Assembly: GCF_055900595.2 (NCBI RefSeq)
Contig: NZ_CM148325.1
Strand: one strand, 5' to 3'
Length of the DNA: 64,000 nt
Below the pieces are notes generated by a model. It was not told the origin of the DNA. It made no database searches and was given only the letters and a program-made list of their open reading frames with translations. Made by a program: the position numbers and the translations under genes. Below, piece by piece: positions 39,403 to 39,789 of this stretch; the stretch's first letter is position 1; the number at the start of each line of letters is the position of its first letter.

Positions 39403-39789
39403 TTAACGATACTTCTGGTGATAGGCGTTGCGGGTCGTTTTCAGTTGCTCTGCGGCAGCCTGCGCTTCTTTTACTTTACCTTCATTAGCCAGCTTCAGCG
39501 CGTCATCAATCTGACCGACCAGAATGTCGAAACCGTGGCGGAAGTCTTTCATCTCCGGGCTGTCTGGCGATTTGCCTTCGAGCTTGGGCGGCGTTGCTTT
39601 TTGCGCATCCAGCGCCGCTGCGCGCATTTTGGTTAACGCGTCTTTGACTTGCGCCGCGTTATCGGCTTTTTCGACCACTTTTAAATTGTCGTTGAGGGTT
39701 TCCATATTGTCTTCAAGATCAGCGGCAAACGACGCCGAACTGAATACCAACGAGGAGACTGCAAGAATAGCTAACAGGCTTTTACGCAT
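39403..39789 (-). CDS. cybC: Soluble cytochrome b562 precursor, full length (128 aa)
   Basis: Signal peptide [22 protein letters not shown] followed by [15 protein letters not shown]... and the haem ligand context; ends ...RNAYHQKYR. Confidence 0.9.

Follow-up and report, generated by a model that had tools for sequence, protein, structure and literature searches.

Few small haem proteins have been studied as thoroughly as cytochrome b562, whose E. coli B form is the parent of the BRIL fusion partner. E. coli B encodes the protein in an intact cybC gene of 387 nt, and the mature product matches the PDB sequence (256b, 1apc, 1qpu) at every residue. The corresponding gene of MG1655 (b4236, NC_000913.3 4459488-4459855, 368 nt) carries a pseudogene flag, a status that is already part of curated annotation and of the literature, where the function of cybC is given as unknown (PMC3349551). 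Expression of cybC has been reported to be higher in B REL606 than in MG1655 (PMC3446290).

We analysed cybC in a 64-kb stretch of DNA, called the window throughout and always meant at its full length, in which the gene and the elements needed to read it are arranged as follows:

39403 to 39789, minus strand: cybC coding sequence, a 128-residue cytochrome b562 precursor plus stop codon (list of open reading frames, Pfam and PDB matches).
39724 to 39789, minus strand: codons 1 to 22, signal peptide, with the cleavage site before ADLEDN (the mature PDB chain begins at residue 23).
39406 to 39723, minus strand: mature 106-residue haem protein, a predicted four-helix bundle (alignment with 1apc_A and 256b).
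39796 to 39802, minus strand: Shine-Dalgarno sequence AAGGAAG, read from the sequence, ending 6 nt ahead of the ATG.

The coding sequence is an ATG-to-TAA open reading frame of 128 codons that occupies exactly this interval, and its product matches the Pfam family PF07361 (Cytochrom_B562) along the whole profile, from position 1 to the last, 102 (117.2 bits, the cut-off being 30 bits; E=5.8e-34). Residues 23-128 of the precursor can be aligned over their full length, without gaps, to the mature 106-residue chain in PDB entries 1apc, 256b and 1qpu, and 104 of the 106 residues are identical to 1apc/256b, the only differences being I17V and D50G. Because the mature chain starts to align at residue 23, we take residues 1-22 to be a cleaved Sec-type signal peptide, and their composition reads accordingly: the n-region (MRK) is basic, the core is hydrophobic and SFA forms the cleavage motif. 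Both axial haem ligands, Met7 and His102 in mature numbering, are retained, and the equivalent precursor residues M29 and H124 are invariant across the CybC proteins of the aligned strains. From its 98% identity to solved structures, we infer that the window protein adopts the four-helix-bundle fold.

The window protein is also 100% identical to an annotated cybC product (WP_001232246.1, strains KMi012 and Z0117EC0005), and the frame, signal peptide, ligands and Shine-Dalgarno sequence are conserved among divergent strains at 98-100% protein identity. The interval is a genuine gene rather than an open reading frame arisen by chance, and the intact 128-residue precursor with signal peptide that the earlier note had read there is borne out by the open reading frame, the Pfam match and the PDB alignment alike, on the minus strand.

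By analogy with the E. coli B protein, the 128-residue precursor would be exported by the Sec pathway and cut by signal peptidase after Ala22, and the 106-residue mature protein would then fold in the periplasm into a four-helix bundle. This bundle would hold a single, non-covalently bound b-type haem through the sulphur of Met7 and a nitrogen of His102, and the resulting cytochrome b562 would serve as a soluble one-electron carrier, with transfer to or from a partner.

We conclude, with a probability of about 97%, that positions 39403-39789 are the intact chromosomal cybC of a non-K-12 E. coli, and that the K-12 allele is the derived one, carrying a lineage-private 26-bp deletion of the gene start. 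The missing segment corresponds to:

39771 to 39796, minus strand: the 26 bp absent from K-12, whose coding-strand sequence is GTGAGCAATGCGTAAAAGCCTGTTAG (from aligning MG1655 and E. coli B with the window).

When the window was aligned with MG1655, E. coli B (strain B-RalR) and three further strains, the K-12 deletion spanned positions -7 to +19, counted from the ATG. It thus removes the spacer between Shine-Dalgarno sequence and start codon, the start codon, the next five codons (2-6) and one base of codon 7, its first, taking out the codons for MRKSLL. No microhomology flanking the 26 bp was found in this strain alignment. The window retains positions 39771-39796 and does not have the K-12-type deletion.

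The two pairwise alignments proposed in the earlier note therefore both give an answer: the K-12 and window genes differ in length (368 vs 387 nt) as well as in sequence, the 368 nt retained at the orthologous MG1655 locus being 94.2% identical to the window DNA, and the comparison with mature cytochrome b562 gives the near-identity described above. The note had further stated that MG1655 cybC is a truncated pseudogene, which agrees with the flag on b4236 and with the loss of 26 bp including the ATG, and that the intact protein is known from E. coli B, which agrees with the 387-nt gene of that strain and the match of its mature product to the PDB protein.

The cybC locus is present in some form in 5,425 of 5,426 complete E. 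coli genomes, and the order pmbA (tldE)-cybC-nrdG is found in every record among the matches listed; cybC in the window lies at the same position. We searched these genomes for the K-12 deletion with a junction probe of 50 nt, 25 nt per side, a 70-nt probe being unusable, with its flanks joined across the 26-bp gap. The junction matches 355 of the 5,426 genomes, and all 40 of the 40 carriers among the matches listed are K-12 or laboratory derivatives, including MG1655, BW2952, DH1, TG1, MC4100, C600, J53, XL10 and O16:H48. Since the junction is limited to so few of the complete genomes, the intact gene is the species norm, and the comparison indicates that intact cybC is the ancestral and nearly universal state, the K-12 allele being a private derived lesion. 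An intact cybC therefore excludes K-12, without further lineage value. The use of the gene as a non-K-12 marker, as put forward in the earlier note, stands in this exclusion, but an intact cybC gives no pointer to a B-type lineage.

Concerning the status of the K-12 gene itself, the annotations conflict. In K-12 derivatives processed by PGAP (e.g. NZ_CP062241.1), a 121-residue coding sequence with an ATT start is called at the locus and named 'cytochrome b562' (WP_023649327.1), so that RefSeq/PGAP treats as a normal coding sequence what is a pseudogene in the curated MG1655 record. Because of this 121-residue call, the term pseudogene is best read as a curated judgement and not as a proven loss of all product.

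The E. coli B gene (PDB 256b/1apc/1qpu) is the same gene at the same locus, and encodes an identical 22-residue signal peptide. However, the window protein has V17 and G50 and hence is not the B allele. Aspartate at position 50 is common to K-12 and B, and the K-12 frame differs by A100S and Q103K. The closest match to the window at this locus is Z0117EC0005, which is 100% identical over positions 38950-39900, an orphan relB gene included, whereas KMi012 has the identical CybC protein and no relBE island.

Two hairpins flank the gene:

39370 to 39395, minus strand: terminator-like hairpin, 8 nt past the cybC stop codon (terminator scan, folding and alignment).
39819 to 39836, minus strand: GC-rich hairpin in the 52-nt spacer between pmbA and cybC (terminator scan; folding energy -12.5 kcal/mol).

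A tail rich in U and C follows the downstream hairpin (-18 kcal/mol, z=-3.86), which is part of the relBE island and stands in the place of a different hairpin in K-12 and B. The upstream hairpin, read on the cybC strand, has an A-run before it and no U-run after it, and the T-run lies on the opposite strand. It looks like an intrinsic terminator for antisense (plus-strand) transcription, not for pmbA.

A simple and insensitive scan of positions 38900-40100 for the sigma-70 consensus found no promoter. Given the short spacer of 52 nt, the lack of a consensus sigma-70 promoter and an intervening hairpin that has no U-tract on this strand, transcription of cybC most likely continues from pmbA or starts at a promoter within the 3' end of that gene.

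The empty promoter scan could also be taken to mean that the open reading frame is intact yet silent or non-functional, a nascent pseudogene that lacks a promoter of its own or encodes a protein destabilised by D50G or I17V. In the literature no physiological role is assigned to b562 (PMC3349551), which would imply that selection on it is weak, at least in the K-12 lineage. We consider this reading very improbable: the frame, the signal peptide, the haem ligands and the Shine-Dalgarno sequence, AAGGAAG in all strains aligned, are intact and the protein is held at 98-100% identity over divergent strains, the gene is kept in essentially all genomes, and the I17V/D50G allele also occurs in other strains. 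Moreover, good expression is reported in strain B (PMC3446290), a promoter scan of this simple kind is insensitive, and the gene may be reached by read-through from pmbA.

An Rfam scan of positions 38300-40300 gave nothing at cybC, the only matches being sub-threshold ones to naRNA4 in the nrdD-nrdG spacer. There, three overlapping matches lie within positions 38337-38489 (31.6-41.9 bits vs a gathering score of 59.5), and short repeats resembling those of this spacer are found at about 14600-14800, 28400-28500, 41890-41970 and 48120-48190.

The spacer between pmbA and cybC is itself polymorphic. In the window it comprises the 52 nt from 39790 to 39841, whereas in K-12 and B an imperfect palindrome of ~128 bp with terminal inverted repeats TTACAC...GTGTAA, missing from the window, separates the pmbA hairpin from the cybC Shine-Dalgarno sequence. 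This element is probably an ERIC/IRU-type intergenic repeat. It is present between pmbA and cybC in about 72% of genomes (3,885 best hits at no less than 90% identity), and diverged copies (~70% identity) occur elsewhere, e.g. in the rhlB-gppA interval, the median being three detectable places per genome. In K-12, about 10 bp separate the end of the ERIC-like repeat from the start of the 26-bp deletion.

On the other side of cybC, the window contains a relB island at about 38973-39397, between nrdG and cybC, which is absent from K-12 and B; the nrdG-cybC spacer of those two measures 44 bp at this place. The island holds one gene:

38973 to 39212, minus strand: orphan relB antitoxin gene, 79 residues (Pfam RelB PF04221, E=7.6e-16).

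In other strains the island carries a relB (243 nt) and relE (291 nt) pair at the same site. With or without relE, it is present in 452 of the 5,426 complete E. coli genomes; relE is present in 394.

Proximity to this island raises the question of whether cybC is a resident core gene or came as cargo, by horizontal transfer together with relBE. The two are adjacent, the island boundary following the cybC stop codon at a distance of only 8-9 nt, and the identity to K-12 is slightly lower for cybC than for its neighbours (97.0% for pmbA and 96.4% for nrdG-nrdD). However, cybC stands between pmbA and nrdG in every listed record, island or not, the sequence upstream of it is collinear with that of island-free strains, and the island-free KMi012 encodes the identical protein. 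On the strength of this constant position and of the KMi012 protein, we reject an origin of cybC as island cargo, to which we give hardly any credence; cybC is best regarded as a resident gene of the core chromosome, next to which the island is found in some strains.

The relE gene of the window was lost by a 283-bp deletion between two direct copies of the 8-mer TCATCCAG (CTGGATGA on the coding strand). The deletion joins codon 79 of relB to the final codons of relE, RelB and RelE both ending in LDE, and leaves a RelB that is identical in 79 of 79 residues to the paired antitoxin, minus its terminal Leu, with a stop codon that abuts the nrdG stop codon. No RelE homologue was found in the 64-kb window by tblastn with the cognate RelE, and the window does not hold an antitoxin and its cognate toxin in one operon, the arrangement by which a type II RelB/RelE toxin-antitoxin pair is recognised. 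The relevant context of the RelB-like open reading frame is this relBE island with its toxin deleted, and not cybC, to which the earlier note had tied it.

The same relE-deletion junction is found in at least 31 complete genomes, including IAI39 and CE10, and its flanks have diverged. A palindromic region upstream of relB, TGTAATGC..GCATTACA at positions 39237-39258, is also retained. Because the antitoxin is identical, the palindromic operator/promoter region is kept, the toxin deletion is clean and in frame, and the junction persists, selection may conceivably have maintained the orphan relB, either as an 'anti-addiction' antitoxin acting alone or in the role of a transcription factor, although we regard this as unlikely.

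Two further features of the window had been named together with cybC as departures from K-12, the absence of chpSB and a different neighbour of leuX, and both were recovered. The K-12 spacer between ytfP and ppa contains chpS-chpB, on 640 bp; the window has about 133 bp instead (50107-50240) and lacks both genes. Within it, at about 50132-50230, lies a chpB-like relic of ~100 bp, which matches an internal stretch of chpB at 76% identity. Because this fragment remains, the data suggest that chpSB was lost by deletion and decay, as opposed to never having been present. At the same ytfP-ppa site, Z0117EC0005 has a frameshifted esiB.

The second departure lies near the beginning of the window:

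2526 to 2610, minus strand: leuX, tRNA-Leu(CAA).

Collinearity with K-12 (idnO-idnD-idnK-ahr-leuX) stops at about position 2474, so that homology ends just beyond leuX, and no counterpart of the K-12 intB/PR-Y/IS2 region was found in the window. No open reading frame of at least 90 residues is present in the 2.47 kb beyond leuX, and positions 1-2480 occur in 361 of the 5,426 genomes only, where they are annotated as 'hypothetical protein'. Sequence comparison thus places the window clearly outside K-12, and outside B as well.

Concerning closer relatives, the best complete genomes reach 98.8-99.0% identity over positions 27000-51000. The similarity to Z0117EC0005, the nearest complete genome, is a mosaic, with 99.3% identity around cybC, 93-97% in other segments, and a minimum of 86.7% over an argF/argI-like segment (20222-21865); idnO-idnD-idnK, at about 3825-6015 in the window as in K-12, are absent from that strain. 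Such a pattern suggests either recombination or a strain that is not represented among the complete RefSeq genomes.

The intact cybC described here is a textbook gene in its normal state, and in this respect already known biology. What the present analysis adds is the exact nature of the K-12 lesion, a deletion of 26 bp, a count of its occurrence in the population, and a structural map of the pmbA-cybC-nrdG locus. The orphan relB, left by a toxin deletion bounded by microhomology, is only a mildly interesting by-product. The locus carries three independent structural polymorphisms, namely the ERIC-like insert, the relBE island and the deletion of relE.
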